DNA of 12,717 nt. Source: a virus. Lineage: Duplodnaviria; Heunggongvirae; Uroviricota; Caudoviricetes. The DNA lies in the IMG/VR virus record IMGVR_UViG_2778261593_000004, positions 1 to 12,717 of that record, one strand, 5' to 3'. Shown piece after piece: positions 1-12,717 of the stretch. Each line of letters opens with the position of its first letter. The first letter of the stretch is position 1. The position numbers and the translations under genes were made by a program. The notes below the pieces were generated by a model. It was not told where the DNA came from. It did not search any database and was given only the letters and a program-made list of their open reading frames with translations.

Positions 1-101
1 TAAGTATTCTGCGCAATTTCCCCGACGGTCGCCGGTTCGGTGACGCTTAATTCATTAAACACCACTCTGGCGGTTTCGGTCATATCCTGCTGTTTTAGCA
101 T
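1..101 (-). CDS. Partial CDS (N-terminal 33 codons, continues beyond window start); unknown function
   Basis: ATG at 101..99 preceded by AAGGA-rich stretch; frame open to the window edge (MLKQQDMTETARVVFNELSVTEPATVGEIAQNT...). Hydrophilic, so not holin-like. Lies just downstream of the terminator that follows the Q-like gene. Confidence 0.35.
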   Translation of the reverse strand, partial: MLKQQDMTETARVVFNELSVTEPATVGEIAQNT

Positions 102-224
102 GTCTTTTTTCCTTTTCTGGTTAACGTGACATACCAATAACTCTTGTCGAAAAAGCCAGCAAGCTGAAAGACCGATATTCGGAACCACCAGCGCGTTTAA
201 TGTTCTGTGCCATTTTTCAGGCAT

Positions 225-246
225 AAAAAAACCCGCAAAAAGCGGG
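225..246 (-). terminator. Rho-independent terminator downstream of the Q-like gene (possible tR'-equivalent)
   Basis: Stem cccgc (232-236), loop aaaaa, stem gcggg (242-246); on the minus strand the stem is followed by a run of 7 T (231-225). Located about 80 nt after the Q-like stop. Confidence 0.55.
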
Positions 247-325
247 CTCTTTCAAATGTCCATGTCTGCTATTCGCCTCGCGGTACAGCTTTGCGAAGCG
301 TACCGGAATTGAAGCAGTTTTTACG

Positions 326-892
326 TCAAAAAGCAATAACTTTTTTCTCTATACCAAAAGCCATAACCATTGGTTTGTACAAAATAAATTCTGCCACCTT
401 TAGCCAATGCTCAATGCGTCTTTCACAGGTTCTTAAACTCCATTCCGGGTGTGCATCATTCAGCAGTTCAGCCATTTTGCGCTTAGTCATCCCCCGCCCC
501 ACATAACGCTGACTCAGGACATTGAGCAGCCCGGGATAACCGGCCAGGGCTTCACCAATAACCCTGTCGATTATTAACGCCTCTGAATCGGTACAATGTG
601 CCAGCCAGCTTTTTTGATTGCCGTTGATCATATCCCGCAAAAAAGCCTCAAGTTCAGGTTTGTCCAGGCCCGCTTTTTTCATCCTCCGGAGCGCCTCGTT
701 AATTGCCGTTTTTGTCAGCTTTTTAGAGGTCAGTAATTGGTTGAACATATTTCCCGTCTTACCGCCGCCAATATACGACCAACGCCCCCACATACGCAGT
801 TTCCCCTGGAGCCAGACACTTTCCAGCGTTTTCAGGCGTAAATGCTCACCGCTTTTGCCTGTAATTTCCGGGTATATCATATTTACGCTCAC
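326..892 (-). CDS. Putative late-gene antitermination protein (Q-like)
   Basis: 188-aa ORF. GTG start at 892 overlaps the rusA stop as GTGA (alternative ATG at 880). Sits immediately downstream of rusA and upstream of an intrinsic terminator, the canonical Q position in lambdoid phages. Family assignment is from memory of Q-like prophage antiterminators, not verified. Confidence 0.55.
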   Translation of the reverse strand: MSVNMIYPEITGKSGEHLRLKTLESVWLQGKLRMWGRWSYIGGGKTGNMFNQLLTSKKLTKTAINEALRRMKKAGLDKPELEAFLRDMINGNQKSWLAHCTDSEALIIDRVIGEALAGYPGLLNVLSQRYVGRGMTKRKMAELLNDAHPEWSLRTCERRIEHWLKVAEFILYKPMVMAFGIEKKVIAF

Positions 893-1248
893 TCACTTTC
901 AATTTTGTAAATCTTCACGCCCAGCCGCCCACCAGGAACGACCTGACCGCGCACTATATTGATTTCATCAAACTGCTCGTCGTCTATGAGTAGTCCCGCA
1001 TGCGTCAGCGCATCCAGTGGAGCTTTCAGGATATTGTCCAGGTCACGGCGACGCTTATCCGGTGGCTCTGCAATAATCTTTATCGCCAGCCTTCCGGACA
1101 GGTTTAACTTCAGCCGCTGCTGGCGAACAATGAGCGCCACATCACGGCGATAACGCTCACCGGATTTTGATACAAAATATGTGCTGCCACGACGTCGCCA
1201 GTAGGTGTTCACCGTCGGCGGGTAAGGCAAAACAAACTCTATACACAT
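889..1248 (-). CDS. rusA: Crossover junction endodeoxyribonuclease RusA (Holliday junction resolvase)
   Basis: 119 aa; N-terminal LPYPPTVNTYWRRRG and central DKRRRDLDNILKAPLDALTHAGLL match the RusA pattern (compare K-12 RusA LPWPPSNNRYYR ... [22 protein letters not shown]). ATG at 1248 with AAGAGG 6 nt upstream. Confidence 0.85.
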   Translation of the reverse strand: MCIEFVLPYPPTVNTYWRRRGSTYFVSKSGERYRRDVALIVRQQRLKLNLSGRLAIKIIAEPPDKRRRDLDNILKAPLDALTHAGLLIDDEQFDEINIVRGQVVPGGRLGVKIYKIESE

Positions 1249-1260
1249 CAGTAACCTCTT

Positions 1261-2307
1261 TTACCCGAGCACGCCGGTTGCAAAGGCGTGATCAAGAAAA
1301 CGAAAAATTAAATCAATCTGGGAACCATGCTTTTCTTCGAACGCCAGCGGGTCCGCATGAAGCTCGTTGTGATGCTCCCGACACAGCGGTAGCGTGAAAA
1401 TATCGTGGGCTTTTGTCCCCATTCCGCCCTGACCGTGACCAATCAGGTGATGGGGATCGTCGGCTGGCTTACCACAACACGCACACGGCTGTGTCTTTAC
1501 CCAGCGAGTGTATTTCTCATTTATCCAACGGCGACGTTTAGGCCGCTTCATGAAAGATTCAGGAGACTCCGGATCAACGGCAATACTGACCACCGTCTTT
1601 TCCTGTGGCGGGTTTTGCTGGTGGGCGTGAGGCAGCGGCGCAAGATTTTTTGTGCGCTGCTTCATTATGCTGGTGGCAGTCTGCTCTCCCGGTATGATGT
1701 CGCTTTCGCGGTACACTGAGCGGATTTTTTCCGCACGCAACCCCAGAGAACGACGCAATACTGTCTCAGGTAATGCGTCCGCCACCTGATTGCAGACCGC
1801 CCACCAGGATAATTCAGCCAGCGATAATTCCCGCTCCTGTGTGCCATTCATTGCATGGCGTATGACGTCAGTCATCCAGGCTGCCAGGTTTTGTTGAGCA
1901 AGTTGCTCAAGTGATTCGGATGTCTGGTCACGCAGCTGGTTGTCGCAGTGCCAGCACAACACCATTGCGCCGGTACCGTAACGATGTATGACGGTTTCAC
2001 TGTGATGGTAGTCACCATGAGGCCACTGGCAGGATTTGACATGACGCAGGAGCCAGTCAGACAGTGCACCAGCGCCGCCGGCAGCACGAATCACCCGCTC
2101 ATCGCTGAAAAATGGCAGTAATGATTTATCTTCCGCCAGCGGCTGGCGAACGGCGGGAACAACTCCGGACGGCAGACCGCGCATGCTTTTTGGCTCCGGT
2201 TCAACCAGCACTCTGCCGTTATGGAATACCTGCATGGATTCACGACCTGGCTTAACGATAACCACCCCAAGTTCCGGCACCAGAACAGGTCGAAGTAATA
2301 CCCGCAC
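1261..2307 (-). CDS. DUF968-like prophage protein (YdfU-like) with C-terminal Cys/His-rich HNH-like motif
   Basis: 348 aa; C-terminal CACCGKPADDPHHLIGHG...LPLCREHHNELHADP metal-binding motif. GTG start 1 nt after the stop of the upstream ORF with GGAGG embedded in that ORF's last codons (translational coupling). Same neighbourhood as ydfU in Qin-type prophages (from memory). Confidence 0.7.
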   Translation of the reverse strand: MRVLLRPVLVPELGVVIVKPGRESMQVFHNGRVLVEPEPKSMRGLPSGVVPAVRQPLAEDKSLLPFFSDERVIRAAGGAGALSDWLLRHVKSCQWPHGDYHHSETVIHRYGTGAMVLCWHCDNQLRDQTSESLEQLAQQNLAAWMTDVIRHAMNGTQERELSLAELSWWAVCNQVADALPETVLRRSLGLRAEKIRSVYRESDIIPGEQTATSIMKQRTKNLAPLPHAHQQNPPQEKTVVSIAVDPESPESFMKRPKRRRWINEKYTRWVKTQPCACCGKPADDPHHLIGHGQGGMGTKAHDIFTLPLCREHHNELHADPLAFEEKHGSQIDLIFRFLDHAFATGVLG

Positions 2308-2308
2308 G

Positions 2309-2581
2309 TTACCTCCAGATGCGTTGCTGGAATGTGCGGGACGGACGCGGTGGGCGTTCGGAATAAGGGAGTCTGACGTAGATTATCCAGTGACGATAAT
2401 CGAGGCTGAGGGCTTTCCTAAACTCATACCCACGTCTGCGGTAGTTATGAATCAGCCATTCGGCCTGTTCTTCAGTGCAGGGGTCGTGCTGATACCAGTC
2501 ATATTTGAATGTGTGAGAACACCGCCCGTGCCTGCTGGCACGAACGGTATCAGAATTGTGTAATTTGGTCTTGTGCGCCAT
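2309..2581 (-). CDS. Small prophage protein (90 aa), rem-like by position only
   Basis: ORF with ATG at 2581, stop TAA directly abutting the downstream GTG start; basic, Cys/His-containing. Weak RBS. Identity not recognised. Confidence 0.5.
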   Translation of the reverse strand: MAHKTKLHNSDTVRASRHGRCSHTFKYDWYQHDPCTEEQAEWLIHNYRRRGYEFRKALSLDYRHWIIYVRLPYSERPPRPSRTFQQRIWR

Positions 2582-2629
2582 CTGTTTTCTCTGCTGGCGC
2601 AGCAGGTGCCAGTTGTTCAGGCTAGCGCG

Positions 2630-2675
2630 ACAGATTGTAACTCATAAATAATAAAAAAGACAAAATCTGCCAAAA
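2630..2675 (-). promoter_or_regulatory. Candidate sigma70 promoter for the 90-aa/ydfU-like/rusA/Q gene string
   Basis: On the minus strand: TTGTCT, then about 18 bp of AT-rich spacer, then TACAAT, in the AT-rich gap between the 273-aa gene stop and the 90-aa ORF start. By-eye match only. Confidence 0.25.
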
Positions 2676-2695
2676 AAAACTAAAAACAAGTTCGG

Positions 2696-3517
2696 TTAAG
2701 ACACCTTCCTGAAAATTACTAGCGGTGTCATACCATAGGAAGTTTCGCTCCTCCCAATCATTCCACGAATACCTTCAAGCATATAGTCTATTGTGCCTCT
2801 GATTTCGTCAGAAGGAAATATTGACTCTGAAACTGTCTCGTCACTTATATCCGGGAGCGCATCTATAACACCGATGACATACCATTCACCAGGTATTCTG
2901 GAACCATACTTTAATGCAAGATTTCCCACATCTAAAGCTAAATCATCAGCCTTGACCGACATCCAGAATATATTTTCTTGATCGTCAAGAAGCTCTATCT
3001 GTGTAGAGAACGGGAGCAAAGAAAACATGTCAGCAGCCATTTTAGCATGATAAATTTCTTCTTGAATATCTTTTTTCTGAGCTGGTGATTTAGTCTGCTT
3101 TAGTTCTTTTTGTTTTGCATCTTTATATATAGGGAGAACATCATGAGCCATTTTCACATCAAATAATTTGATATGCCCTTTTACCATCACCAGACTTCCA
3201 ATTTCTGCATTTTCTAAGCTCGTTGCCACCAAGCCTTGTTCGTGCAACTTATCAAAAAAATTTAATGGTAAAGACCATGATGAGTCAAAATGCCGCTCTT
3301 GCGTTTTTGCAAAAGAATCCCCCGCATTTTTCCTGGCATTAAATAATGAAACGCCACCTTTAAGTTCATTTAATGAATGCTCAGAACTGGACGAGATTTG
3401 TTTTACAGCATTCAATACTCCTGATGGAAATAATTGCGCAGTGAAGTAACCTACGCGCTCTTTGTCAAGATAAAGGTAATCAAATAGTGAATCTACGGCT
3501 TGACAATCTTGATCCAT
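2696..3517 (-). CDS. Hypothetical protein, 273 aa, unknown function (AT-rich cargo gene)
   Basis: Long ORF. Start chosen at ATG 3517 (MDQDCQAVDS...) because GAGGAG lies 7 nt upstream; the track's upstream ATGATG at 3586 has no SD. No transmembrane stretch or recognisable catalytic motif seen. Visibly lower GC than flanking phage genes. Confidence 0.7.
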   Translation of the reverse strand: MDQDCQAVDSLFDYLYLDKERVGYFTAQLFPSGVLNAVKQISSSSEHSLNELKGGVSLFNARKNAGDSFAKTQERHFDSSWSLPLNFFDKLHEQGLVATSLENAEIGSLVMVKGHIKLFDVKMAHDVLPIYKDAKQKELKQTKSPAQKKDIQEEIYHAKMAADMFSLLPFSTQIELLDDQENIFWMSVKADDLALDVGNLALKYGSRIPGEWYVIGVIDALPDISDETVSESIFPSDEIRGTIDYMLEGIRGMIGRSETSYGMTPLVIFRKVS

Positions 3518-3659
3518 TGGCATGCTCCTCTTTGATCCTTGCTTTTTCCTCAGCAATTTTTCTTTGCTTTTCTTCGATTTCATCATACATCAATTGCATT
3601 TCAGTGATGTCGAACGGCTTTGAACCACTTTTAAGCAATCTCACCAGTTTGCGGATCAT
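3480..3659 (-). CDS. Small ORF (59 aa) overlapping the start of the 273-aa gene
   Basis: ATG at 3659 with GAGGAG 7 nt upstream; MIRKLVRLLKSGSKPFDITEMQLMYDEIEEKQRKIAEEKARIKEEHANGSRLSSRRFTI; stop at 3480 overlaps the downstream start by 38 nt in another frame. Below the track's length cut-off. A promoter-like AT-rich stretch lies upstream (about 3665-3760, minus strand). Confidence 0.3.
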   Translation of the reverse strand: MIRKLVRLLKSGSKPFDITEMQLMYDEIEEKQRKIAEEKARIKEEHANGSRLSSRRFTI

Positions 3660-3770
3660 TGCGTATCTCCTCTTAAATATCGTTCAAATTATGTTCAAAC
3701 AAATTCTCAAACACAACAATGTAATGCATCAATATTTGGGTGCGTTGAGGATGCCTGACACATCAGAGGT

Positions 3771-3792
3771 GGCGAGGGATTTCTCCCTCGCC
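3771..3792. other. Perfect 9-bp stem-loop immediately 3' of hok (hok mRNA 3' structure)
   Basis: ggcgaggga (3771-3779), loop tttc, tccctcgcc (3784-3792); 8 nt downstream of the hok stop on the minus strand; no U-tract follows, so not a canonical intrinsic terminator. Confidence 0.45.
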
Positions 3793-3799
3793 AGGTCTC

Positions 3800-3955
3800 T
3801 TACTCCTCAGGTTCGTAAGCTGTGAAGACAGCGACCTCCGTCTGGCCGGTTCGGATTCGTACCTCACAGAGGTCTTTCCTCGTTACCAGTGCCGTCGCTA
3901 TGACGGTTAAACAGATGACGATCAGGGCGATTAACATCGCCTTTTGCTGCTTCAT
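3800..3955 (-). CDS. hok: Hok-family type I toxin (HokD/RelF-like), 51 aa
   Basis: Translation MKQQKAMLIALIVICLTVIATALVTRKDLCEVRIRTGQTEVAVFTAYEPEE is an essentially exact Hok-family sequence. Below the ORF-track length cut-off, so found by manual translation. Confidence 0.9.
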   Translation of the reverse strand: MKQQKAMLIALIVICLTVIATALVTRKDLCEVRIRTGQTEVAVFTAYEPEE

Positions 3956-4011
3956 AGCCTGCTTCTCCTTGACCTTTCGGTCCGTAAGAGGCTAATCTCT
4001 ATGTGTCGCAT
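3952..4011 (-). CDS. Short leader ORF (19 codons) translationally coupled to hok (mok-like)
   Basis: ATG at 4011..4009, MRHIEISLLRTERSRRSRL, TGA stop overlapping the hok ATG (ATGA). Hok loci normally carry an upstream overlapping reading frame (mok) that controls hok translation. Confidence 0.4.
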   Translation of the reverse strand: MRHIEISLLRTERSRRSRL

Positions 4012-4075
4012 AGATATGGCCTCAGATTAATGTTAAGCGTCTTGCCGGACGCCGAATGTTAACTGGGGCTTTTCT
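3969..4075 (+). ncRNA. Candidate Sok-like antisense RNA with its promoter (boundaries approximate)
   Basis: Plus-strand TTGACC (3969-3974), 18-bp spacer, TAATCT (3993-3998), giving a transcript antisense to the hok leader/mok-like start; downstream nested inverted repeats (4033-4062) and ctatctgcc/ggcagatag (4073-4109). The 3' end is not defined by a clean terminator. Confidence 0.3.
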
Positions 4076-4511
4076 CTATCTGCCTTTTGGTGTTCATGCC
4101 TGAGGCAGATAGCCTCAAGCACCCGCAGCAATTCTAACTATCCAATAGATCAATGCCAACTTCTTTTCCTGCAACATCTCTCAACATAAGTGACCAAAAT
4201 TCACCCAATCAGCACAAAAGAAACATTTAAAGCGTGAATGCTACCGAACGTTCATTTCAATTACATCGTTTTGATTTTTAACAGTTTTCACCTCAACAAA
4301 TCAAATGGCATTAGCATTCATCATGGAAGAAAGACTGATAAAAATGATCATTTTCAATGACTTATGATCACACCGGGTATTGCCAAGTCATTCCTTTTAC
4401 GCCAGGATACCCACAAGTAAGTAGTCGAGGAGAGTTTGCCAATTTTTGCGATATAAATTTCAATGTCCGAAGAACCATTAATTGTTAATTGATTCTGTAT
4501 AAGGTTTTAAC

Positions 4512-5609
4512 ATGACAATTTCATATATTCCTATTCTGAAAGCGAAGCGTTCTGAGTTATCAGCTTTATCGCAGCTATCCATTGAAAAGAAATCAAAAAT
4601 TTTGCCATTACTCGAAATTGAACCAGTGCCAATTGACCCTGATTCAGGTATTGCCTTAAAGAGTTATAACGAGACTCTTATAGAGTTCGGAAAGAAAGTC
4701 TCAAAATCTTGCTCAGATATGCAAGGTGTTTATATTGATGGATTATTAATTGAAGAGCATTTTATTTCGCCTGAAGATCATTACCCTATAATAAATGCGG
4801 TTAATCAAGTTAGAGATATGGGGATAAGAGTTATTCCTGTCAGTTCACCAACTCGCCCATCTAACTATAAAAGAGCGATTGATGAATTAATACAGAATGA
4901 AATATGCTTGAGATTAACCACGTTAGATCTGGTTAACCCACAATTAATAACGCATTACATTCATCATCTGGGAATTCCTTTATCAAATATTGATATAATT
5001 ATTGACTTAAGAGATGAGTTAACCGAGGATAAACTTAATTCCGGCGAACTATATACTTTGGCAATGGGATTGATAAACAATCTGGCGCACCTCAATGAAT
5101 ACAGAAAAGTGATTCTTTCTGGGGGTTCATTTCCTACAGATCTCAGTGATATTTCTGTTGGTCTATATTCTCAACCTCGAATCGAGTGGATTTTATGGCA
5201 GAGTTTAATGAATAGAAAAGAACTTGCCAGAAATGTGATTTATAGTGATTATGGAGTACAGCACCCCGACTTTAATAGGCTTTCGACGCGATTCCCTAGC
5301 GTATCTGCCAGCGTCAGATACTCTGGAGATAATGACTTTTGGGTATTTCGAGGAAGAGTAGCTAATCGCTTTGGTTATGAACAATATGGTAAACATAGTG
5401 AGGATATTCTTGCTCATCGAGAATATTCAGGGCCTACATTCTGTGCGGGAGATAGAGACATAGAATATTATGCAAACGAGTATCAAGCCTACAAAGCCAA
5501 TCCCTCTGGTAACTATAAATTTGGTAGCCCAGAGGTATGGCGTAGGATTGGGCAAAACCATCACATAACTAAGGTTGTTGAGCAACTCGCCACTCTTTAC
5601 GGGCTTTAA
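4512..5609 (+). CDS. Beta-protein family protein (sce7725-like), 365 aa
   Basis: ATG 4512 with AAGG 7 nt upstream; N-terminus MTISYIPILKAKRSELSALS matches the Y-x-P-I-L-K opening I associate with the Pfam Beta_protein family (memory, unverified). AT-rich; the only sizeable plus-strand gene between 326 and 10249. Confidence 0.8.
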   Translation: MTISYIPILKAKRSELSALSQLSIEKKSKILPLLEIEPVPIDPDSGIALKSYNETLIEFGKKVSKSCSDMQGVYIDGLLIEEHFISPEDHYPIINAVNQVRDMGIRVIPVSSPTRPSNYKRAIDELIQNEICLRLTTLDLVNPQLITHYIHHLGIPLSNIDIIIDLRDELTEDKLNSGELYTLAMGLINNLAHLNEYRKVILSGGSFPTDLSDISVGLYSQPRIEWILWQSLMNRKELARNVIYSDYGVQHPDFNRLSTRFPSVSASVRYSGDNDFWVFRGRVANRFGYEQYGKHSEDILAHREYSGPTFCAGDRDIEYYANEYQAYKANPSGNYKFGSPEVWRRIGQNHHITKVVEQLATLYGL

Positions 5610-6147
5610 GTTTAACTCGAACAGCTTCACGAAGCTCGCCAACATCCATACTATTGGCGAGTTTTGACCATAAGACGCGTTTAGGTTTATTTTTCAAATT
5701 CTGTAGCTCCCCTACATCACTTAATAGGGAAAGCAATTCATCTTTCCAAAGAAGCATTGTTAAGGAAAGTTTGTCCACTTGTGGATTCAACTTGCTAGTT
5801 CGAATTGTTTTTAAATGGATACCTTGCCGTGCACCTTGCGTAACTTGCTTTATCCCCCACCATGATGGAACTATGCTTAAAGCATCATAAAGATGGCAAT
5901 CAGAGACAACCAACGTTACTTTATCCATCACTGATGAGTAATGTTGCACCTGCGCTGGTAATCTGAGCAAGTTATCACTCTTGCTCTTCAACTCATAACC
6001 ATGTATAAGTCCATTGATCACTGCTATATCAGCTCTGCTAGCCCCTAGATTCATCGTAAACTCATCAATGATTAGGGTGTCAGGATCTTTATGATGATCT
6101 CTCAGAATCTTGGCATGCACAGCCTTTCTTACATCAATGTCTCTCAT
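5569..6147 (-). CDS. PD-(D/E)xK nuclease-fold protein (sce7726-like), 192 aa
   Basis: N-terminal region shows hydrophobic-D (TLIIDEF), RADIAVING, then HGYELKSKSD: a D ... E-x-K arrangement typical of restriction-endonuclease-fold nucleases. Weak SD. 3' end overlaps the convergent Beta-protein gene by 41 nt. Confidence 0.75.
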   Translation of the reverse strand: MRDIDVRKAVHAKILRDHHKDPDTLIIDEFTMNLGASRADIAVINGLIHGYELKSKSDNLLRLPAQVQHYSSVMDKVTLVVSDCHLYDALSIVPSWWGIKQVTQGARQGIHLKTIRTSKLNPQVDKLSLTMLLWKDELLSLLSDVGELQNLKNKPKRVLWSKLANSMDVGELREAVRVKLKARKEWRVAQQP

Positions 6148-6179
6148 ACCATAGTTGCGCTTTCATCGACTCTCTCAAG

Positions 6180-6198
6180 CCATGATTCTATATCATGG
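6180..6198. promoter_or_regulatory. Palindromic candidate operator upstream of the nuclease-fold gene
   Basis: ccatgat-tctat-atcatgg, perfect 7-bp arms, centred about 40 bp upstream of the ATG at 6147. Confidence 0.3.
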
Positions 6199-6452
6199 TT
6201 CGCATGAATGCCATTTGATATGACCAGTGGTTAAACATTGCACAGAAAAGTGGATGTGTATTTTAACAAAAGCAATGACGGCTAACCATGTTGGTATGTC
6301 GATAAAATGTTTCAACGTAAGCATTATCTGTTCCGCCCTTTCAGACGGCCTCCTGATGTTCTGAGGGTGCAGAATCCCTCCGGTTAAGGATTTAATAAAA
6401 TTCACTTCTGATTTAAATTTTCAGTATTTTGTTGTCAGGTAGTTTATCGCCT

Positions 6453-6764
6453 TTATGCTTCAGCCTTATTTCTCAGCCATACACAAACAGGACCATCTTC
6501 AGTGTCATGAATGGAACCAATGAACCAGCCATCACCTTCCGGGCGCTCCGGTTTCCAGGAGGCAATATCGGGACCATCTGCGTCCAGATTAAAATTATCT
6601 TCATCCATAGTTCTGATGGTCCATTGAAGATTATTTTCCTCCATCCATGCGTTAAACTCTTCCGTTGAAATATGTTCTCTACCATCACAGAATTTTTCAT
6701 ACTCAGGATGCGTCCAGCAGCCATATTCATCACGTATTACTGGTATTTCTCTAATTTCATTCAT
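6453..6764 (-). CDS. Strongly acidic small prophage protein, 103 aa, unknown function
   Basis: ORF with about 26 Asp/Glu versus about 9 Lys/Arg by hand count; 8-nt overlap with the upstream ORF suggests coupling within the nin-like gene string. Confidence 0.55.
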   Translation of the reverse strand: MNEIREIPVIRDEYGCWTHPEYEKFCDGREHISTEEFNAWMEENNLQWTIRTMDEDNFNLDADGPDIASWKPERPEGDGWFIGSIHDTEDGPVCVWLRNKAEA

Positions 6765-7014
6765 TTCTGTTCTCCCACGTTTTCAGACTTTCACCACAGA
6801 ACGGGCAAAAGCACATTGCAACGCCACGACCGATATATTGCCCAGAGTGAATTTGAGCAATATCTAAGCCTGACTCGCCAGTGTTTATGTTCACACGCTC
6901 CGGGATAAATATCCCTTTACTCTTGAACGTTGGATTTCCATATTCGAGAGATTTTGATAACGCCGCGCACGGCTCTATCTGATTGCCATTAATCTGACAT
7001 TTTGATTCACTCAT
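6757..7014 (-). CDS. Small Cys-rich (zinc-ribbon-like) protein, 85 aa
   Basis: Cys pairs near both ends (SKCQINGNQIEPC ... CFCPFCGE); ATGA overlap with the upstream ORF. Confidence 0.5.
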   Translation of the reverse strand: MSESKCQINGNQIEPCAALSKSLEYGNPTFKSKGIFIPERVNINTGESGLDIAQIHSGQYIGRGVAMCFCPFCGESLKTWENRNE

Positions 7015-7217
7015 TGCTTGAATCCCTCCCGAAGCTGTTCTGCACAGTGCAGCAGCGCATCAGTCACTTCTTTCACCGTAACGAGATCGCCATCGTCCAG
7101 TCCTGCAATTTTTGCGTGCCTGACAAACGCCGCGCAAAGGTCGTTAAACGCCCCAGCCCGCACATCCGCCAAGAAAGCGTTAGCAGCAGCCAATTCCTGG
7201 TAGTCAATCTTGCTCAC
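7011..7217 (-). CDS. Small nin-region protein, 68 aa
   Basis: GTG at 7217 with AGGAGG 6 nt upstream (preferred over the track's ATG at 7247, which has no SD and a larger overlap); 4-nt overlap with the downstream ORF. Confidence 0.45.
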
Positions 7218-7947
7218 TGGTTGCCTCCTGGCAAAGCTGGGCGACAATATCGCGATATTTATTCAGCTCCCGCAGCGCGGCACAGACTCGCTCCCATTTC
7301 CGGATATCACTTTTCGCCCGACGCAGTTCGCGGTTTGCCTGTCGCAGCGATGGCAGAACCAGATTATCCACTCGCTTCTCAAGCGGCTGCACAATGTCCG
7401 CCACAGTTTCTGTTTTAATATCTTCCTGTGTTGCAGCTTCCTGTACTGGTAACGCAACACATGCAGGCTGAGGAAAGGCTTTACCATCAGTTTCCGCTAC
7501 CGATGCCGCTTTCGGCTCTGCTGGTAAATTACCGCCCGGCATGCAGTAACGAAATTTACCGTTCTGATTAACACGAATCAGACGACCTTTGCTGATTGCC
7601 ATTGCCAGCGTTGAAGCCACTTTGCGGGATGTTGTACCGAACAGCGTAGCCAGTTCATCCGCCGTTTGTGGTCCGCGTTGTTCAATCGTCGCGGTTAAAT
7701 CGCACTCTGAGATTTTCGCTACTGTCGCCGTGGTGGTTTCTTCCGGCTGTTCTTCTGGCGCTGGCTGTTCCTGCTGAACGTTGTTATCAGCCACACGCCA
7801 GGTGTATACGCTTTTATCAACGAAGCCAGCCTTTTTCAGTTCCCACAGCTCGTTCAGTACTTCTTCACGACTGATATCAAGTCGCGCAGCCAGCTCTACC
7901 GACGTGGCTTTTCCCATCGCTTTCAGTGCGTCAAAAACTGTCTCCAT
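7204..7947 (-). CDS. Prophage protein with N-terminal winged-helix-like domain, 247 aa
   Basis: Start placed at ATG 7947 ([43 protein letters not shown]) with GGGAGG 8 nt upstream; the track's upstream extension lacks an RBS. Confidence 0.65.
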
Positions 7948-7981
7948 TAAAATTTCCTCCCGGTAAAAATTACTTCTCAAC

Positions 7982-8647
7982 TCAAACAAAACCAGCCGCT
8001 TTCCGGCGTTCATATTCCTGTTTCAGTAACTCAATTGGCGTTGGCCCCGACGGGCGTTTGGGTGCCGCCAGTTGTCGCCGGACTGGCGGAACGCTCAGGC
8101 CGTTACTAACATGCTTTGCCCATTTCGTCAGCTGCCGTTCTGCAAGCCGTTTTAATTCCCCTTCGGTCATCTGGCGCTCAATCCCCTTTGAACGCATCTC
8201 GAGGCAAATGTGATACAGCACAGGCTGAGACCACGGGTATTTATCGCTTCCGTCGTATCGCCAGGACTCGTTGCGCCAGCGTCGGTACTCCTCCATCACG
8301 TTATCCACCGTCAGACCAAATGGATTTGCCCCGCTCTCCGAAATCAGCGCCACAAACTCAGCCAAGTCCGGAGGCCATGTTTCACCTGCCCTGCAACGGT
8401 CCATGCACTGGCGGCAGACCAGCCGGATTTGCTGCTCAGTCATCGCGCCAATCTGTGCAATCCAGAGCTTCGAAGGTGCGGCCCCGTTCTTCTGGGTCCA
8501 GCGGTTCGAATAAACCTCCCCCATGAGTTCCCACAGCTTCCACGCCGTTTCCGTCGCTGATAAATCCATTTTCACGTTCCCACTGCTCACGTGCTGCCCG
8601 AATTTCCTGAACTGCCCGTGATGCGGTGCCACCTGGTGCGGCTGCAT
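7982..8647 (-). CDS. Replication protein P-like (DnaB helicase loader)
   Basis: C-terminal half ([15 protein letters not shown]...[21 protein letters not shown]...[14 protein letters not shown]) resembles lambda P as I recall it (YPWKS...LTDAELRRKAADEL...IPEPVKQLP). The 5' end is uncertain because of a 212-nt overlap with the O-like ORF. Confidence 0.7.
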
Positions 8648-9476
8648 GGCTCACCCCCTTGCTGACTGGTTTAACCTGCGCCCTGACGTGATTTACGTGA
8701 CGGGCGAATTTCTGCTCCCACTGAACCTGCGTAAATACTTTCCCCTCCGCTGCCCAGTAGTCCCGGAAGGCGGCAAGTTCAGCAGGTGTAAATTCCGGCT
8801 CCGGCAAAGCCATCCCCCACACCGCAGCCCGTCGTCGAAAATCCCGTGACGGATGCCAGCTATCGGTCATCGGAAATTTTCCGATGGGTTCGCTCAGGCC
8901 ATCCAGGAATACGGGTGGCACTGCCTGTAACGACAAAACTTCCTGCTCACTGGTCGGAGCACTCTCGCGTGCATTATGTGTGGGGTTTAGATCTTTGGGT
9001 TCCTTTGGGTTCCGTGATCCGTTTTTGGGTGTCTTTGATGGAAAATTTGGGTGTCTTTGGTTATTTTCCATGCAGCTAAGAGTTCCGTTTTTGGGGCTGT
9101 TTTGTGCTGAAACATAACCATTTTCGGTACTGTTTTTATTAACAGTACCAATTTTACCCACCTTTAAAGACTCCCGTTTTTGGGTGTATTCAGGCTCGGC
9201 AACGCTTTCTTCTACACCGATAAGTCGGTACACTACGATTTGCTTTGTTCGGCCTTTTCTCTCACCGGTATCAACAATTAACCCAATCTCCATCAGGTGT
9301 CGTAAGCTGTCCTGCACAGTCTTTTTGTTCAGCTCCGTTACTTCTGCCAGTGCAGATACAGACGGGTATGCACACAAATCGGCACCGCACATATCAGCAA
9401 GCCAGGTCAATACTGACTTACTGGATGAACTGCCGGTTTTCACCTTTTTAGCCCATCGTAGTGCATCGATACTCAT
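8436..9476 (-). CDS. Replication initiator (O-like): N-terminal wHTH domain, low-complexity linker containing origin iterons, C-terminal domain
   Basis: ATG 9476 with AGGGGT upstream (the track start at 9551 is TTG). N-terminus MSIDALRWAKKVKTG...LMEIGLIVDTGERKGRTKQIVVYRLIG is HTH-like; the origin-type iterons fall inside the K/N/P-rich linker coding region, as in lambda O. Confidence 0.7.
   Translation of the reverse strand: MSIDALRWAKKVKTGSSSSKSVLTWLADMCGADLCAYPSVSALAEVTELNKKTVQDSLRHLMEIGLIVDTGERKGRTKQIVVYRLIGVEESVAEPEYTQKRESLKVGKIGTVNKNSTENGYVSAQNSPKNGTLSCMENNQRHPNFPSKTPKNGSRNPKEPKDLNPTHNARESAPTSEQEVLSLQAVPPVFLDGLSEPIGKFPMTDSWHPSRDFRRRAAVWGMALPEPEFTPAELAAFRDYWAAEGKVFTQVQWEQKFARHVNHVRAQVKPVSKGVSHAAAPGGTASRAVQEIRAAREQWERENGFISDGNGVEAVGTHGGGLFEPLDPEERGRTFEALDCTDWRDD
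8982..9191. repeat. Candidate replication origin: iterons, AT-rich tract and 9-bp-arm palindrome, inside the O-like gene
   Basis: Iterons ccgtttttgggtgtctttg (9019-9037), gaaaatttgggtgtctttg (9041-9059), ccgtttttggggctgtttt (9085-9103), cccgtttttgggtgtattc (9173-9191), plus degenerate tttgggt copies at 8994-9010; AT-rich 9106-9165 containing ggtactgtt-tttatt-aacagtacc (9126-9149). Confidence 0.55.
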
Positions 9477-9999
9477 ACGAACCCCTGGCAGACATTTGTT
9501 TATCTGCAAAGTAATATTGGTATTGCTGACGATACGCACGCTTGAAAGCAATGGCTTTTTCTATAAGCTCGTCAGTCTCACGTTCCACAACAGCTGGATC
9601 CGCAAAAAGCAGCCCGGACTCCACCACATCGCCATATTCTTTGTTTAACCCGGCGATCATGTACGTAATGCTTTTTCCGTCAGTAATTTCACAATACAAC
9701 CTGAAATCGCTGATCCGGATAGCCTCCATAATTGCCGGAATCAGCGCCGTGAATTTTTCACGCTTATCCCTGGTGTCGATAGCTTTCCAGCGTTCGAATA
9801 TCTTCACCCTGTTAACGCCCAGCGCCCGTTGATCAACCGCGCCATCATCAAACGTGACGCGATGAACATCGATGTTCGGGCGTTCTTTCAGAGCCCAGAA
9901 TGCTTCCGTGATTAATATCGTCGCCTGCTCCTGCGTCATTCCTGGTCGGCATACCCAGGCATCCAGAGCCTCGCGAGCCTGCTCAGGAGTGAATATCAT
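9448..9999 (-). CDS. YdaT-like (CII-analogue) prophage regulator, 183 aa
   Basis: Segment ERWKAIDTRDKREKFTALIPAIMEAIRISDFRLYC resembles the YdaT core as I recall it (REKIQKLIPAILAIL...RLC); sits directly downstream of the Cro-like gene, as ydaS-ydaT in Rac. Confidence 0.6.
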   Translation of the reverse strand: MIFTPEQAREALDAWVCRPGMTQEQATILITEAFWALKERPNIDVHRVTFDDGAVDQRALGVNRVKIFERWKAIDTRDKREKFTALIPAIMEAIRISDFRLYCEITDGKSITYMIAGLNKEYGDVVESGLLFADPAVVERETDELIEKAIAFKRAYRQQYQYYFADKQMSARGSYEYRCTTMG

Positions 10000-10249
10000 T
10001 GTTCACCGCCAGTGATTCATTCGCTGTAGGCTTAATCCTGCCAATAGTCAAAACCGCATCAGCAGAAAATAATCCGTTTGATGCCAGAGCAATTTTTTCA
10101 GCGTAATTTGTTTCGCCTGTATATTCTGTGCGCGGTAATTTTCCATTATTCATCCATTTGTAGATTGCTCTTTGGCTGACACCGCAAACATCGGCTACAA
10201 CAGAAACGCGAACTGCTTTGATTACATCTGCAAGTGTTGTATGGCTCAT
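9983..10249 (-). CDS. Cro-like HTH regulator (YdaS/DicC-like), 88 aa
   Basis: Start at ATG 10249 (MSHTTLADVIKAVRVSVVADVCGVSQRAIYKWMNNGKLP) with a GAGGGTG SD; HTH-like VSQRAIYKW; divergent from the DicA-like repressor. Confidence 0.65.
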   Translation of the reverse strand: MSHTTLADVIKAVRVSVVADVCGVSQRAIYKWMNNGKLPRTEYTGETNYAEKIALASNGLFSADAVLTIGRIKPTANESLAVNNDIHS

Positions 10250-10328
10250 ATCACCCTCACAATGTGAACTTTGAGTACACAATATAACAGAACTGACAGT
10301 ACATTCAATAGTAAATATCATTGAACTT
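10250..10328. promoter_or_regulatory. Divergent promoter/operator region of the immunity switch
   Basis: 79-bp AT-rich gap between the divergent cro-like and dicA-like starts; repeated GAACT (10265, 10291, 10323) and AGTACA (10274, 10298) motifs; the dicA-like ATG has no SD, suggesting a leaderless or short-leader mRNA. Confidence 0.5.
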
Positions 10329-10748
10329 ATGGTTCATGAAGATGAAGCGCGTAAAGAGTTCGCCAGCAGGCTTGCGCTAGCCTGTGATAATGCTGGTTTT
10401 GAACAACACGGAAGGCAGGCAGAAATTGCCCGTCGAATGAAGCTAACACCCAAAGCGGTTAGTAAATGGTTTAATGGAGAGACAATTCCCCGTCGAGAGA
10501 AACTGAAAGAATTGGCAGCACTTATCGGAACAACACCAACTTACCTTCTGGGGGAGGACACTGAAGAAAGCGGAAGCCTGCGTTTCTATCAGGAGTTAAG
10601 TCCGAGGCAAAAAATCATCATTGAACTTCTTGATGAACTCCCTGACAGTGAAACTGATGAACTTTTAAAAACTCTTGAGGAGAAAAAACAGAAGTACAAC
10701 GCAATTTATGAAGAATTAGCGCGAAAGAAAAAACAAAAAGCCTCCTGA
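10329..10748 (+). CDS. dicA: DicA-like XRE-family repressor, 139 aa
   Basis: HTH region (EIARRMKLTPKAVSKWFNGETIPRREKLKELAALIG); C-terminal LSPRQKIIIELLDELPDSETDELLKTLEEKK resembles K-12 DicA (LSPKELELLELFNALPESEQDTQLAEM, from memory). Supported by a downstream DicF-like RNA and DicB-like start. Confidence 0.65.
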   Translation: MVHEDEARKEFASRLALACDNAGFEQHGRQAEIARRMKLTPKAVSKWFNGETIPRREKLKELAALIGTTPTYLLGEDTEESGSLRFYQELSPRQKIIIELLDELPDSETDELLKTLEEKKQKYNAIYEELARKKKQKAS

Positions 10749-10752
10749 ATCT

Positions 10753-10786
10753 GCATAAATCCGGTAACTTCCCTCCGGGTTTATGC
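10753..10786 (+). other. 12-bp stem hairpin after dicA-like stop, followed by a C-rich tract
   Basis: gcataaatccgg-taacttccct-ccgggtttatgc (one G-U wobble), then ctcctcccccccctcct; no U-tract, so not a canonical intrinsic terminator. Confidence 0.35.
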
Positions 10787-11050
10787 TCCTCCCCCCCCTC
10801 CTGGTACTTTATCTCTCATAAAATGTACTAAAAGTACTTTACATTAGTGAACAAAAAGTACATCATATCAACCAACCCACCCCGTCCCACAGAACGCAGG
10901 GCAATACTTCGAGTTACCAGGCAGTGGTCAGGGGTTAAGTAGCCAGCCCGAGACGTAAGAACATGACGGCAGGGTTCAACTTTAACTATGCAGCAGGTTT
11001 TTGTTCCGCTACCCCGGCGTTAAGGGGATACGGCATTGCGAGGAATCACT

Positions 11051-11257
11051 ATGCAGAAACGAGAACCCGTCATCATCGCGCCAGACTATACCGATGATGA
11101 ACTTTATGAGTGGATGCGCGGGAAGATACGCGCCATTAATGACCTGAAGCAGGCCACTGATCACAAAGAGCGCCTCTCTGAAACACTGGCGTCAGTGACG
11201 CAGGATATTACCGCTCTGGCAAAAAGCGCGGCATTAAACGTTTCGCGAGTGATTTAA
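11051..11257 (+). CDS. Small prophage protein, 68 aa (YdfA/B/C-region analogue by position)
   Basis: ATG 11051 (MQKREPVIIAPDYTDDELYEWMRG...) with GAGGAA 5 nt upstream; first gene after the dicA-like repressor on the same strand. Confidence 0.5.
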   Translation: MQKREPVIIAPDYTDDELYEWMRGKIRAINDLKQATDHKERLSETLASVTQDITALAKSAALNVSRVI

Positions 11258-11281
11258 AACCACCGACTGATGAGGTTGACT

Positions 11282-11920
11282 ATGGAATTTAAAGATTTAC
11301 CAATTTCAATACAGGAAATGGCCGCTGATGTGATTCGCTCGCAACTGGCGCGGAACCCAATGATATTAGTAGATAAACTGTTCATCAGAAATTTATCAAA
11401 TCATGTCCGCAATTCCTTTACCGGACTGTATTCATATTCGTTCACAAACAATCATTGTGTAGAAAATAAAGCAAAACTCATTGCAGAAACGACAGCGCAA
11501 AACATCAACACGAAACCAACGGAAGAAGAAATTGATCAGTTTGCTCATGATGCTGGTTTAAAAAACAAGGAAGAAAAATCGCCATATGCGGGAAACATGT
11601 TTGTTTATGACAACCTTATCCGAATTCGTGGCGAAATTCCGACTGAATACCTGGCAAAAATTCACCAGGCATTACTTAAAAATCTGGAAACGGAAGTATT
11701 TGATGGCAACACCAACGGCTCCTTCGTGGTGTCAGCTCTCGCAAAAGAGTGGGATAAAGATAATCGCTGGAATGTTGCTACATGGTTATTCAGCAACAAA
11801 GCTTCCGCCCTGGAAGCTGCGGCGTGTATTTGCGACCTGCTAAGGACAGACCGCAAATACAACCTGGATGTGTATAGCTATATTTATGCTGAACACTATC
11901 CGCTATGGATTAACTGGTAA
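11282..11920 (+). CDS. Hypothetical protein, 212 aa, unknown function (AT-rich cargo gene)
   Basis: ATG 11282 (MEFKDLPISIQEMAADVIRSQL...) with GAGG 6 nt upstream; visibly AT-rich; no recognisable motif. Confidence 0.6.
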   Translation: MEFKDLPISIQEMAADVIRSQLARNPMILVDKLFIRNLSNHVRNSFTGLYSYSFTNNHCVENKAKLIAETTAQNINTKPTEEEIDQFAHDAGLKNKEEKSPYAGNMFVYDNLIRIRGEIPTEYLAKIHQALLKNLETEVFDGNTNGSFVVSALAKEWDKDNRWNVATWLFSNKASALEAAACICDLLRTDRKYNLDVYSYIYAEHYPLWINW

Positions 11921-12130
11921 TTACAAAGCTGTACCAGCAGGGCCACGACGACCAGCACCACGATTGTAATCAATGATGCCATTATAAAGCGCATTATTTA
12001 ATTTATCGTCGAATGCCGATTCTGTGAGTCCTAGCTCTGAATGAGTTTTTAATAACCCTGATTGCCTGAGTTGATTAACCAGGCATTCAATCTGTTTTTC
12101 AATAAGCGGATGTATTGGCTTGTTTGGCAT
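11921..12130 (-). CDS. Small protein, 69 aa, unknown function
   Basis: ATG 12130 (MPNKPIHPLIEKQIECLVNQLRQSGLL...) with GGAGGA 4 nt upstream; its stop codon directly abuts the stop of the convergent 212-aa gene (TAATTA). Confidence 0.45.
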   Translation of the reverse strand: MPNKPIHPLIEKQIECLVNQLRQSGLLKTHSELGLTESAFDDKLNNALYNGIIDYNRGAGRRGPAGTAL

Positions 12131-12458
12131 TTTATCCTCCATTGAGGTTACTGGTTGAGAATGGAGACCACACGTGACAGCGTGTTGTCGTGCGCCGGAC
12201 ACGGATAAGAATCCGGCACTGACAGTTTACTGAAAGGATATATCCCTGAAAAGTCAGGGCATAACGCGAAAGCGCACGGCGAAGTTATTTCTCCCTCTGT
12301 TGCGTGCCACCGGCATCTTCGACCGTGCGCTTCCGGTTGTGGCAATCCGCGAAATGGCGCGGCGGTAAGTATGGCGAGGCTATCCTTTCCTCGAGATAAC
12401 ACCGGGTTGTCAGGTTGACCATACGCCTGAGTGACAACCCCGCTGCAACAACCCATGT

Positions 12459-12511
12459 TGATTACCTTTTGGCGACATCAGTTTCATTGCTGGCTGATGT
12501 CCGCCCTTTTT
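12459..12511 (+). ncRNA. dicF: DicF-like small RNA with intrinsic terminator (boundaries approximate)
   Basis: ttttggcgacatcagtttcattgctggctgatgtccgccctttttaaag: an 11-bp stem with one bulge (12471-12505) followed by 5 T; pattern resembles K-12 DicF as I recall it (uuuggcgguaucaguuuu...cugccgcccuuuuu); lies between dicA and a dicB-like start, as in Qin. Confidence 0.45.
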
Positions 12512-12672
12512 AAAGTGAATTTTGTGATGCGGTGAATGCGGCTCAGCGCACGCGGAACAGTTAAAACAAGCAACCTTATGGGTGAAATACTCCGGCGTTA
12601 ATTGTTAACTGGTTAACGTCACCTGGAGGCACCAGGCACCGCATCACAAAATTCATTGTTGAGGACGCGATA

Positions 12673-12717
12673 ATGGAAAAGTTATCATACAATGCCAGTA
12701 CGTCTGAACTTCGTTTC
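12673..12717 (+). CDS. dicB: Partial CDS (first 15 codons), DicB-like cell-division inhibitor
   Basis: ATG 12673 with GAGGA 7 nt upstream; MEKLSYNASTSELRF compares with K-12 DicB MKTLLPNVNTSEGCF (memory); continues beyond the window end. Confidence 0.45.
   Translation, partial: MEKLSYNASTSELRF

Follow-up and report, generated by a model that had tools for sequence, protein, structure and literature searches.

The window, the whole 12,717-nt stretch of DNA analysed here (IMG/VR record IMGVR_UViG_2778261593_000004, positions 1 to 12,717), carries a repeat array inside a phage replication initiator gene. The array is probably the iteron part of a lambda-type origin, contained within the coding sequence of the prophage's own initiator. 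It is composed of six dyad-symmetric sites of ~24 bp within 9012-9190, three of them well conserved (ACACCC type) and three degenerate. In the protein it spans amino acids (aa) 96-161, between a folded N-terminal domain (N-domain, aa 1-88) and a DnaT-like domain (aa 194-267). Coordinates of all features are collected in Table 1.

The repeats at 8982-9191 had been taken, from the letters of the sequence alone (the sequence-only reading), for four well-conserved 19-bp iterons with a shared core, accompanied by degenerate copies. Repeats far beyond chance are indeed present there. A repeat search returns 19-nt copies at 9019-9037, 9085-9103, 9118-9136 and 9174-9192, and 14-nt copies at 8994, 9024 and 9046. 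The initiator gene is on the minus strand, on which the plus-strand motif TTTGGGTGT reads ACACCCAAA. This coding strand has six CCCAAA cores within 190 nt, at 9184, 9095, 9051, 9029, 9009 and 8999, and nine in the whole 12.7-kb window. The Poisson probability of this clustering is ~7e-9, and ~1e-6 once corrected for window scanning. The shared core is exact in three copies only (TTTGGGTGT at 9024, 9046 and 9179), the fourth 19-mer reading TTTGGGGCTGT in its place. A single further exact copy of the nonamer lies at 10446-10454, inside the repressor gene, with ACACCCAAA on the plus and TTTGGGTGT on the minus strand; its orientation is opposite to that of the array, and it is possibly a chance occurrence.

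The repeat unit is better described, on its sequence, as a dyad-symmetric site of ~24 bp than as a 19-mer, and the proposed set of four gives way to three ACACCC-type and three degenerate sites (1a, 1b and 2); the presence of degenerate copies had been correctly noted. Variable columns were counted among 45 unique close relatives, taken from a within-clade set of 80 loci on IMG/VR viral contigs that are ~100% identical in the N-domain. The count is 0 for site 4, 2 for site 3 and 3 for site 1, and it rises to 5-6 for each of sites 1a, 1b and 2 (6 in site 1a, 5 in site 2). The three ACACCC sites (1, 3 and 4, the three TTTGGGTGT copies) are the best candidates for working iterons, because they have the fewest variable columns within the clade. 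Site 1 is identical in Edwardsiella phage EPP-1, and in nine relatives its right arm reads GGGTGT, giving a perfect ACACCC/GGGTGT dyad. The odd site 3 is kept as ACACCC/GATCCC plus GTTTTTTCCGTC in Salmonella, Klebsiella and Yokenella. In one close relative both arms of site 1 are changed together, from ACACCC..GGGAGT to ACCCCC..GGGGGG.

The linker DNA of the window is colinear with the arrays of Edwardsiella and Plesiomonas. Compared with these the order is site 1, decayed site 1a, a deleted unit, and then sites 1b, 2, 3 and 4. Site 1a aligns column for column with the intact iteron GACACCCAAAAACGGTACTGTT of Edwardsiella phages and prophages (GGTGCTGTT in EPP-1), which in the window has decayed to GGTGGGTAAAATTGGTACTGTT. 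An equivalent 1a/1b site pair, ...GGAACTGTTAATACAAACAGTGCC..., is found in an Enterobacter relative (L105). The protein P0031 of E. coli/Shigella lacks 22 aa; the missing 66 nt equal the spacing of sites 2 and 4 exactly. Next to site 4 stand two tandem 10-mers, GGAACCCAAA, which align with the AT-richer tail GGAATCTA(T/C)CAGGAACCTAAAAGAT of the relatives; on this alignment their candidature as iterons 5 and 6 was downgraded, and they are probably not full iterons. One relative (an IMG/VR locus) has three such 10-mers instead of two. A terminator-like match at 9081-9098 was rejected, being site 2 read on the plus strand, with the number of hits below the shuffle expectation. Rfam returns no family within the array region.

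The repeats point to selection at the level of DNA and not of protein. The six CCCAAA cores lie in frames 1, 0, 2, 0, 2 and 0, and ACACCCAAA is translated as TQK, HPN or TPK depending on the frame, all three being used. Synonymous-codon resampling with the linker peptide fixed and with the codon usage of the array region itself yields a mean of 0.94 CCCAAA, against six observed, a count that was reached in 0 of 20,000 resamples. Variable sites at codon positions 1/2/3 number 14/7/16 in the linker and 2/0/22 in the N-domain; the linker has no third-position bias and its peptide is therefore weakly constrained. Within gene nt 411-480 (sites 3-4 and the 10-mers) 3 of 70 columns vary, compared with 65 of 236 elsewhere in the linker (Fisher p = 1e-5), and of the third codon positions there 1 of 24. 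The sites are furthermore dyads, a symmetry that is meaningless for a peptide. That the array is a low-complexity repeat of the protein (PKNG / TQKR motifs), placed in a flexible linker, or arose by neutral slippage, and in either case has no role at the DNA level, is very improbable. The copies in phiV10, Her, Ab105 and Edno5 are mostly in one frame, reading (D/R)P(K/E)NG, as that explanation would have it, and slippage variants exist; in the window, Bcep176 and EBPR1, however, the copies are in three frames, and in EPP-1 in two. The resampling result and the dyad symmetry also oppose it, and the linker is without third-position bias, yet sites 3-4 are invariant, but for the few columns just given, at all codon positions. 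A purely protein-level reading is essentially excluded.

The unit was compared across a set of 17 initiator genes with 82 sites. The genes are from Escherichia, Edwardsiella, Plesiomonas, Klebsiella, Enterobacter, Salmonella, Yokenella, Acinetobacter, Vibrio, Burkholderia and an unassigned metagenomic phage. All 17 carry the same unit at the same position, irrespective of the C-terminal domain. The sequence-only reading had staked itself on conservation of the iterons in homologous initiator genes; by these same-position arrays it is not refuted. The consensus of the 82 sites is AAnRnWCCC-RAAAAC-GGKAnnnTT (24 bp). GG at positions 16-17 is present in 76-78 and AA at positions 1-2 in 76-79 of the 82 sites; the search pattern required neither of them. 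Mirror positions agree at 0.29-0.95 versus a null of 0.20-0.30, most arm positions clearly exceeding the null, and for the sites of the window, too, the symmetry is higher than the null. Dyads are perfect in EPP-1 (ACACCCAAAAACGGGTGT), phiV10 (GATCCCAAAAACGGGATC) and also Ab105. The preferred half-site varies by phage (ACACCC, GATCCC, AGTCCC, AGTACC, GAACCC), and a tendency to follow the presumed recognition-helix sequence is suggestive only.

An N-domain of 38-75% identity is found in the initiators of EPP-1 and Edno5 (Edwardsiella), Bcep176 (Burkholderia), AP22, Acb75 and Ab105-2phi (Acinetobacter), phiV10 (E. coli), Her (Vibrio) and EBPR podovirus 1. Each of these phages has a like array, which begins a few codons at most from the domain end. 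Arrays at the same position are present also in Edwardsiella, Plesiomonas and Acinetobacter prophages, and in full-length HTH_36 plus DnaT homologues (51-58% identity) of Klebsiella, Enterobacter, Salmonella and Yokenella, obtained with the full-length initiator as query (a 91-aa N-domain query gave fragments only). In Moraxella phage Mcat8 (locus L090, 1501-2619), which has no CCC-AAAAAC-GG sites, the linker encodes long peptide repeats (GGTILHERGCKNDTPNNFVSK...); its repeats suggest a different iteron type.

In the window and phiV10 the partner of N-domain and array is a DnaT domain, and a P-like gene is present; in EPP-1 the partner is Phg_2220_C, and in AP22 the unit adjoins a DnaB-like helicase. 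The most telling case of modularity is Edno5 (locus L094, 1429-2271), by its sequence a natural hybrid initiator: an HTH_36-type N-domain is combined with a lambda O C-terminal domain and followed by a P gene, and three near-perfect ATCCCAAAATTGGGAT dyads are carried. In the window the DnaT half has 93% DNA identity with a Rac-type initiator, which is without such repeats (the protein of Rac-SA53 is DUF1376 plus DnaT). Rac-SA53 and phage pPE4 match window positions 8436-8969 only. DNA-binding domain and sites thus form one mosaic unit, since N-domain and array meet varied C-terminal parts and the similarity to Rac stops beyond the array. Lambda O and its iterons are likewise one mosaic unit.

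The initiator matches PHROG 1032 'replication initiation protein' (E 1e-89 over aa 1-298) and PHROG 6643 (E 2e-28), and by its N-terminal profile match it fits the HTH_36-type phage initiators (PHROGs 1032, 6643 and 391). Pfam HTH_36 at aa 36-67 scores 20.8 bits in the window protein, under the 25-bit cut-off, and is above the cut-off for most relatives tested. The AlphaFold model, built with 12 homologues, is characterized for aa 1-88 by the order H-H-H-H-E-E and a predicted local distance difference test (pLDDT) of 66-86. Foldseek returns weak matches only for this domain (E >= 4e-3), all of them winged-helix DNA-binding proteins, including the plasmid Rep N-terminal domains 4pql and 5kbj; a PDB sequence search with it gives no significant match. 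At aa 89-195 pLDDT is ~30, so that the repeats lie entirely within a predicted disordered linker, and their placing in the linker-coding part of the gene, claimed from the sequence alone, is borne out. The C-terminal part is matched by Pfam DnaT PF17948 at aa 201-267 (E 2.6e-17) and, in PDB sequence searches, by structures of the DnaT C-terminal domain (4ou6 and 6aep, E ~1e-19); the fold match has a TM-score of 0.85-0.93 (normalised to the target chain) at 56% identity. The NCBIfam full-length DnaT model scores 93.6 bits versus a 201-bit cut-off and covers profile positions 82-157 only, by which the initiator is ruled out as a DnaT (primosomal protein I) equivalog. RefSeq relatives are annotated as 'DnaT-like ssDNA-binding domain-containing protein' (ssDNA, single-stranded DNA), and phage records as 'phage replication protein'.

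The designation as an O-like protein stands in part. Initiator and lambda O both match PHROGs 678 and 345, 'replication initiation O-like'. PF04492 Phage_rep_O gives no match to the initiator at E <= 0.01; lambda O and P22 gp18 score 123-130 bits. In an hhalign comparison of the N-domain, helix-turn-helix (HTH) plus wing, the resemblance is weak (P = 0.016 for lambda O, 0.005 for P22 gp18). Membership of the lambda O family was therefore dropped, and this HTH_36 plus DnaT-domain protein is treated as O-like in its working, not as O-family.

An AT-rich tract and a perfect 9-bp-arm palindrome had been placed after the iterons. Both exist, and both are within the array. The GC minimum is 0.32, at 9100-9159. 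The least stable DNA of the gene sits between sites 1 and 2, and the flank 3' of the array is not AT-rich. The same stability scan recovers the known AT-rich tract of lambda as the least stable 40-mer of O, and the minimum is just 3' of the array in lambda, EPP-1, Edno5, Bcep176 and EBPR1. An AT-rich tract immediately downstream of the last iteron, as in ori-lambda, is absent from the window. Directly 3' of the iteron array of phiV10 (locus L006, 2310-2345) stand three tandem 12-mers, AACCAGTCATAT, with no counterpart in the window; by analogy with the oriC 13-mers they may be an unwinding element.

As a DNA hairpin the palindrome is predicted at -7.3 to -7.6 kcal/mol (z = -2.75). Only 5 of 79 close relatives have it in perfect form, with no compensatory change; in an Enterobacter relative the same half-site pair is imperfect. 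From the alignment of its arms it is read as a pair of half-sites that face each other, contributed by decayed site 1a (right arm) and site 1b (left arm). Inverted half-site pairs of this kind arise automatically, because the array consists of dyad sites. Not conserved as a perfect repeat and mapping onto two iteron arms, the palindrome was rejected as a separate lambda-like element.

Upon the sequence anatomy and the homology of the DnaT domain the following course of binding, unwinding, loading and replication is proposed. After derepression, leftward transcription from a pR-like promoter would yield the initiator and a P-like loader. Dimers of the N-terminal winged-helix domain would bind the ~24-bp dyads, that is inverted half-sites, mainly (A)ACACCC, around an AAAAAC A-tract centre; the N-domain (aa 1-95) is accordingly expected to bind ACACCCAAAAACGG-containing DNA. 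The best conserved sites 1, 3 and 4 flank ~110 bp of decayed, AT-richer iterons. Multiple bound dimers together with A-tract bending could then give an O-some-like complex, stressing and opening 9128-9167, the least stable DNA. The DnaT-like domain, homologous to the ssDNA-binding domain of E. coli DnaT, might hold the opened strand and/or dock the P-like protein with host DnaB. Theta replication would start, with transcription from the pR-like promoter crossing the origin as in lambda. The sites fall in a disordered linker and would for this reason be tolerated by the protein. N-domain and its own sites would move between phages as one unit.

Two circular E. coli 'plasmid' records, NZ_CP148379.1 (8,461 bp) and NZ_CP148543.1 (15,643 bp), are made up solely of genes from this early region of the prophage, namely repressor, cro, ydaT, initiator with array, P, hokD and cargo. 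The 8,461-bp record shows no replication gene besides these. They may be natural lambda-dv-like replicons or assembly artefacts. The cargo slot of the smaller record holds a different pair, an HNH endonuclease and an ATP-binding protein.

Several observations weigh against the array being a working origin of this kind. The segment 9128-9167 is at only the 97th percentile of the whole window and is not extreme. The AT-rich tract and CCCCC..GGGGG palindrome that follow the array in the Edwardsiella phages and P22 are missing. The array (dyad scores 5, 4, 4, 0 and 3 of 6) is more degenerate than those of EPP-1, phiV10 and EBPR1, and one repeat unit is deleted in comparison with Edwardsiella prophages (L098, L099) and Plesiomonas. 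Two N-domain relatives, Mcat8 and BS46, are without the CCC-RAAAAC-GG motif. A defect, in packaging at least, is reported for PPompW prophages whose module is 97% identical (PMC8112680). The circular records, which lend the origin circumstantial support, may be artefacts. In the literature searched no paper on this initiator family or its iterons was found, an absence that is no proof of their being undescribed.

Two other explanations are kept because of the degenerate array and the reported PPompW defect. The array may descend from a functional iteron origin that no longer fires and persists in the still-open initiator gene of a decaying prophage. This is unlikely. It would account for the degenerate sites, the deleted unit and the change of the left arm of site 1a from ACACCC to GTGGGT, for the lack of an AT-rich tract and GC palindrome downstream, unlike Edwardsiella phages and P22, for deletion and expansion variants (P0031 minus 66 nt; one relative with three 10-mers), and for the description of PPompW prophages with the module as defective (PMC8112680). 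Synonymous-site conservation of sites 3-4 is nevertheless strong across the 45 unique relatives, complete E. coli genomes carry the module at 95-99% identity in 907 of 5,426 cases, and the small circular records carry this replication module only. The DnaT-module versions of Klebsiella, Salmonella, Enterobacter and Yokenella have the same layout, which makes the layout of the window the norm of the family and not local decay.

Still less probable is that the sites bind the initiator while replication starts elsewhere, their role being operon autoregulation, titration/handcuffing or exclusion of related phages. Plasmid-borne lambda iteron DNA inhibits related phages and does not need the AT-rich region for it (PMC3349717), and the window is without a clear lambda-like AT-rich flank. 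On the other side, the iterons within the initiator genes of lambda and P22, both experimentally studied, are the origin. No second repeat cluster is seen in the region searched, 8800-9400; DnaA boxes nearby are 2-mismatch matches only, none of them good; and the only other exact ACACCCAAA in the window is the single copy at 10446-10454. The lambda-type origin thus remains the probable assignment.

The arrangement itself is of the well-known lambda kind, met here in an initiator family that has been studied less, and its novelty is modest. New, to a modest degree, are the sites and the 24-bp consensus, absent from the annotations of the records examined and from the literature searched, the affiliation of the initiator to a different domain family with a DnaT-like C-terminus, and the AT-rich element internal to the array. 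The 24-bp dyad is conserved over phages of Enterobacterales, Vibrio, Acinetobacter and Burkholderia, and its plan, with short inverted arms on either side of an AAAAC centre, is that of the lambda and P22 iterons. A wider reading is possible but tentative: AAnRnWCCC-RAAAAC-GGKAnnnTT may be an undescribed, family-wide origin signature of HTH_36-type phage initiators, winged helix and sites an ancient exchangeable cassette bolted onto DnaT-like, lambda-O C-domain, Phg_2220_C or helicase-coupled partners, and the unwinding element of the DnaT subgroup recruited from decayed internal iterons. If this is true, origins and replicon specificity groups would be readable from sequence in thousands of prophages. 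A likely origin and a binding-site consensus can be assigned to a module of about one-sixth of complete E. coli genomes, including prophages of enterohaemorrhagic E. coli (EHEC) hosting Shiga toxin (Stx) phages, and phages of several other genera have the same type of module, in a gene that at present bears only the annotation 'DnaT-like' or 'primosomal' protein. The joint exchange of origin-binding domain and sites, to which different loader-recruiting domains are attached, helps to predict which prophages can cross-activate or exclude the replication of one another. The general picture of lambdoid replication is unchanged.

Table 1. Position of the initiator gene, its repeat sites and neighbouring features in the 12.7-kb window.
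Feature	Position	Strand	Basis or remark
Initiator gene, 346 aa, ATG at 9476	8436-9476	minus	open reading frame (ORF) and translation
N-terminal winged-helix domain, aa 1-88, presumed origin-binding	9213-9476	minus	AlphaFold model
Predicted disordered linker, aa 89-195, whole repeat array inside	8892-9212	minus	pLDDT ~30
DnaT-like ssDNA-binding domain, aa 194-267	8676-8897	minus	PDB and Pfam matches
Site 1, AATACACCC AAAAAC GGGAGTCTT	9167-9190	minus	dyad match 7/9
Site 1a, degenerate, AAGGTGGGT AAAATT GGTACTGTT	9141-9164	minus	right arm is one palindrome arm
Site 1b, AACAGTACC GAAAAT GGTTATGTT	9111-9134	minus	dyad match 7/9; left arm is other palindrome arm
Site 2, AACAGCCCC AAAAAC GGAACTCTT	9078-9101	minus	dyad match 6/9
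Site 3, AAGACACCC AAATTT TCCATCAAA	9034-9057	minus	ACACCC half-site, then T-rich centre
Site 4, AAGACACCC AAAAAC GGATCACGG	9012-9035	minus	best conserved site
Two tandem 10-mers GGAACCCAAA, CCCAAA core	8994-9013	minus	TRF, period 10 at 8993-9013
Perfect 9-bp-arm inverted repeat, GGTACTGTT n6 AACAGTACC	9126-9149 (arms 9126-9134 / 9141-9149)		
Least stable 40-mer of gene, candidate unwinding element	9128-9167		nearest-neighbour stability scan, z = 2.7 within gene
Mosaic boundary	8960-8994		DNA similarity to Rac-type (DUF1376 N-domain) initiator ends at 8969, ~25 nt 3' of array
Lambda-P-like helicase-loader gene, long form 221 aa, ATG at 8647	7982-8647	minus	Pfam PF06992, E 1.3e-16
DUF1627/Ren-like protein	after lambda-P-like gene	minus	
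YdaT/cII-like protein	9448-9999	minus	
Cro-like regulator	after repressor in early-right order	minus	
pR-like promoter candidate	10281-10308	minus	consensus scan match in repressor/cro intergenic region; support positional only
Repressor	10329-10748	plus	first of early-region gene order

The window has 99.4% identity to a prophage of E. coli RM10740, and the initiator gene region 97% identity to PPompW-type lambdoid prophages of EHEC. By sequence the window is taken to be the early-right region of an E. coli lambdoid prophage; the minus-strand early genes around the initiator stand in the classic early-right order. The pR-like candidate, from a promoter scan with a number of hits not above shuffle expectation, would drive the cro-like, YdaT/cII-like, initiator and P-like genes, transcribing through the array. 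A hok/sok type I toxin-antitoxin locus is present at 3800-4124 (hokD annotated at 3800-3955; Rfam sok match at 3953-4124, minus strand, 107.5 bits). The moron slot that separates the replication region from the nin-like region holds, at 4512-6147, a convergent gene pair, one member being a 'beta protein' with PF14350 (PADLOC PD-Lambda-2_C, E 1e-41) and the other an sce7726/'cll' family protein (PADLOC E 2e-28); the pair is likely anti-phage defence cargo.

The lambda-P-like gene adjoins the initiator on its downstream side and is recognized by PF06992 and by PHROG 109 'P-like helicase loader'. The long ORF overlaps the 3' end of the initiator out of frame by 212 nt (last 70 codons, 8436-8647). 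The PHROG 109 match spans aa 20-220 of the long form and the BLASTP alignment to phiV10 P begins at aa 18, both starting within the overlap. RefSeq annotates only a 153-aa form, with start at 8443; gene callers predict long overlapping forms in relatives from Klebsiella and Salmonella. Across the initiator codon positions the overlap has 18/9/14 variable sites, a pattern that fits the P frame slightly better, or dual coding.

The lambda origin consists of iterons and a 38-bp AT-rich tract (PMC7466680, PMC3349717). Four iterons are annotated in lambda (ATCCCTCAAAACGAGGGA and variants), at the same place in O, with short inverted arms around AAAAC/AAATT. The likeness extends to the unit, lambda ATCCCTC-AAAAC-GAGGGAT and window ACACCC-AAAAAC-GGGTGT being dyads with an A-rich centre, to the location of the sites mid-gene in the initiator, in linker-coding DNA immediately following a winged-helix origin-binding domain, to the P-type helicase-loader gene next to it and to transcription of the region from a pR-like promoter. 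Of the ori-in-O architecture first proposed, therefore, iterons in the initiator gene with a P-like gene next are retained, and the lambda order of iterons, AT-rich tract and palindrome is not. Differences from lambda are the N-domain (Pfam HTH_36, not Phage_rep_O, linked by shared PHROGs and weak hhalign), the DnaT-like domain in place of the O C-domain, sites with core arms of 3-6 bp and conserved AA/TT ends (~24 bp versus 18-19 bp), and AT-rich DNA inside the array, not 3' of it. The array is also likened to the 6-iteron origins of Stx phages 933W and P27.

In P22 the annotated ori is inside gene 18, with iterons followed by an AT-rich tract and a CCCCC..GGGGG palindrome, an order shared by the Edwardsiella relatives of the window module. 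P22 differs in that gp18 is a Phage_rep_O protein, the iterons are of the TCGGTAAAAC type and a DnaB-like helicase, not a P-like loader, comes after gp18; the window is without the AT-rich/GC-palindrome tail. The initiators of phiV10/epsilon15-like phages, EPP-1, Edno5 and AP22, annotated as 'primosomal protein' or 'replication initiation protein', share with the window the N-domain family (38-75% identity) and the plan and position of the iterons, phiV10 also the DnaT domain and P-like gene. Their half-sites differ (GATCCC in phiV10 and Edno5, GAACCC in AP22, ACACCC in the window and EPP-1), as do C-terminal domains and loader partners, and the iterons are unannotated in their records. Plasmid iteron origins (RepA/pi/RepE; staphylococcal RepA_N) are similar in having a winged-helix initiator, direct repeats and easily melted DNA, but plasmid iterons are usually outside the rep gene and monomer-bound, whereas the sites of the window are dyads inside the gene. 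With E. coli DnaT the initiator has in common the C-terminal ssDNA-binding domain alone, clearly homologous at 56% identity; DnaT acts in PriA restart, not in origin recognition.

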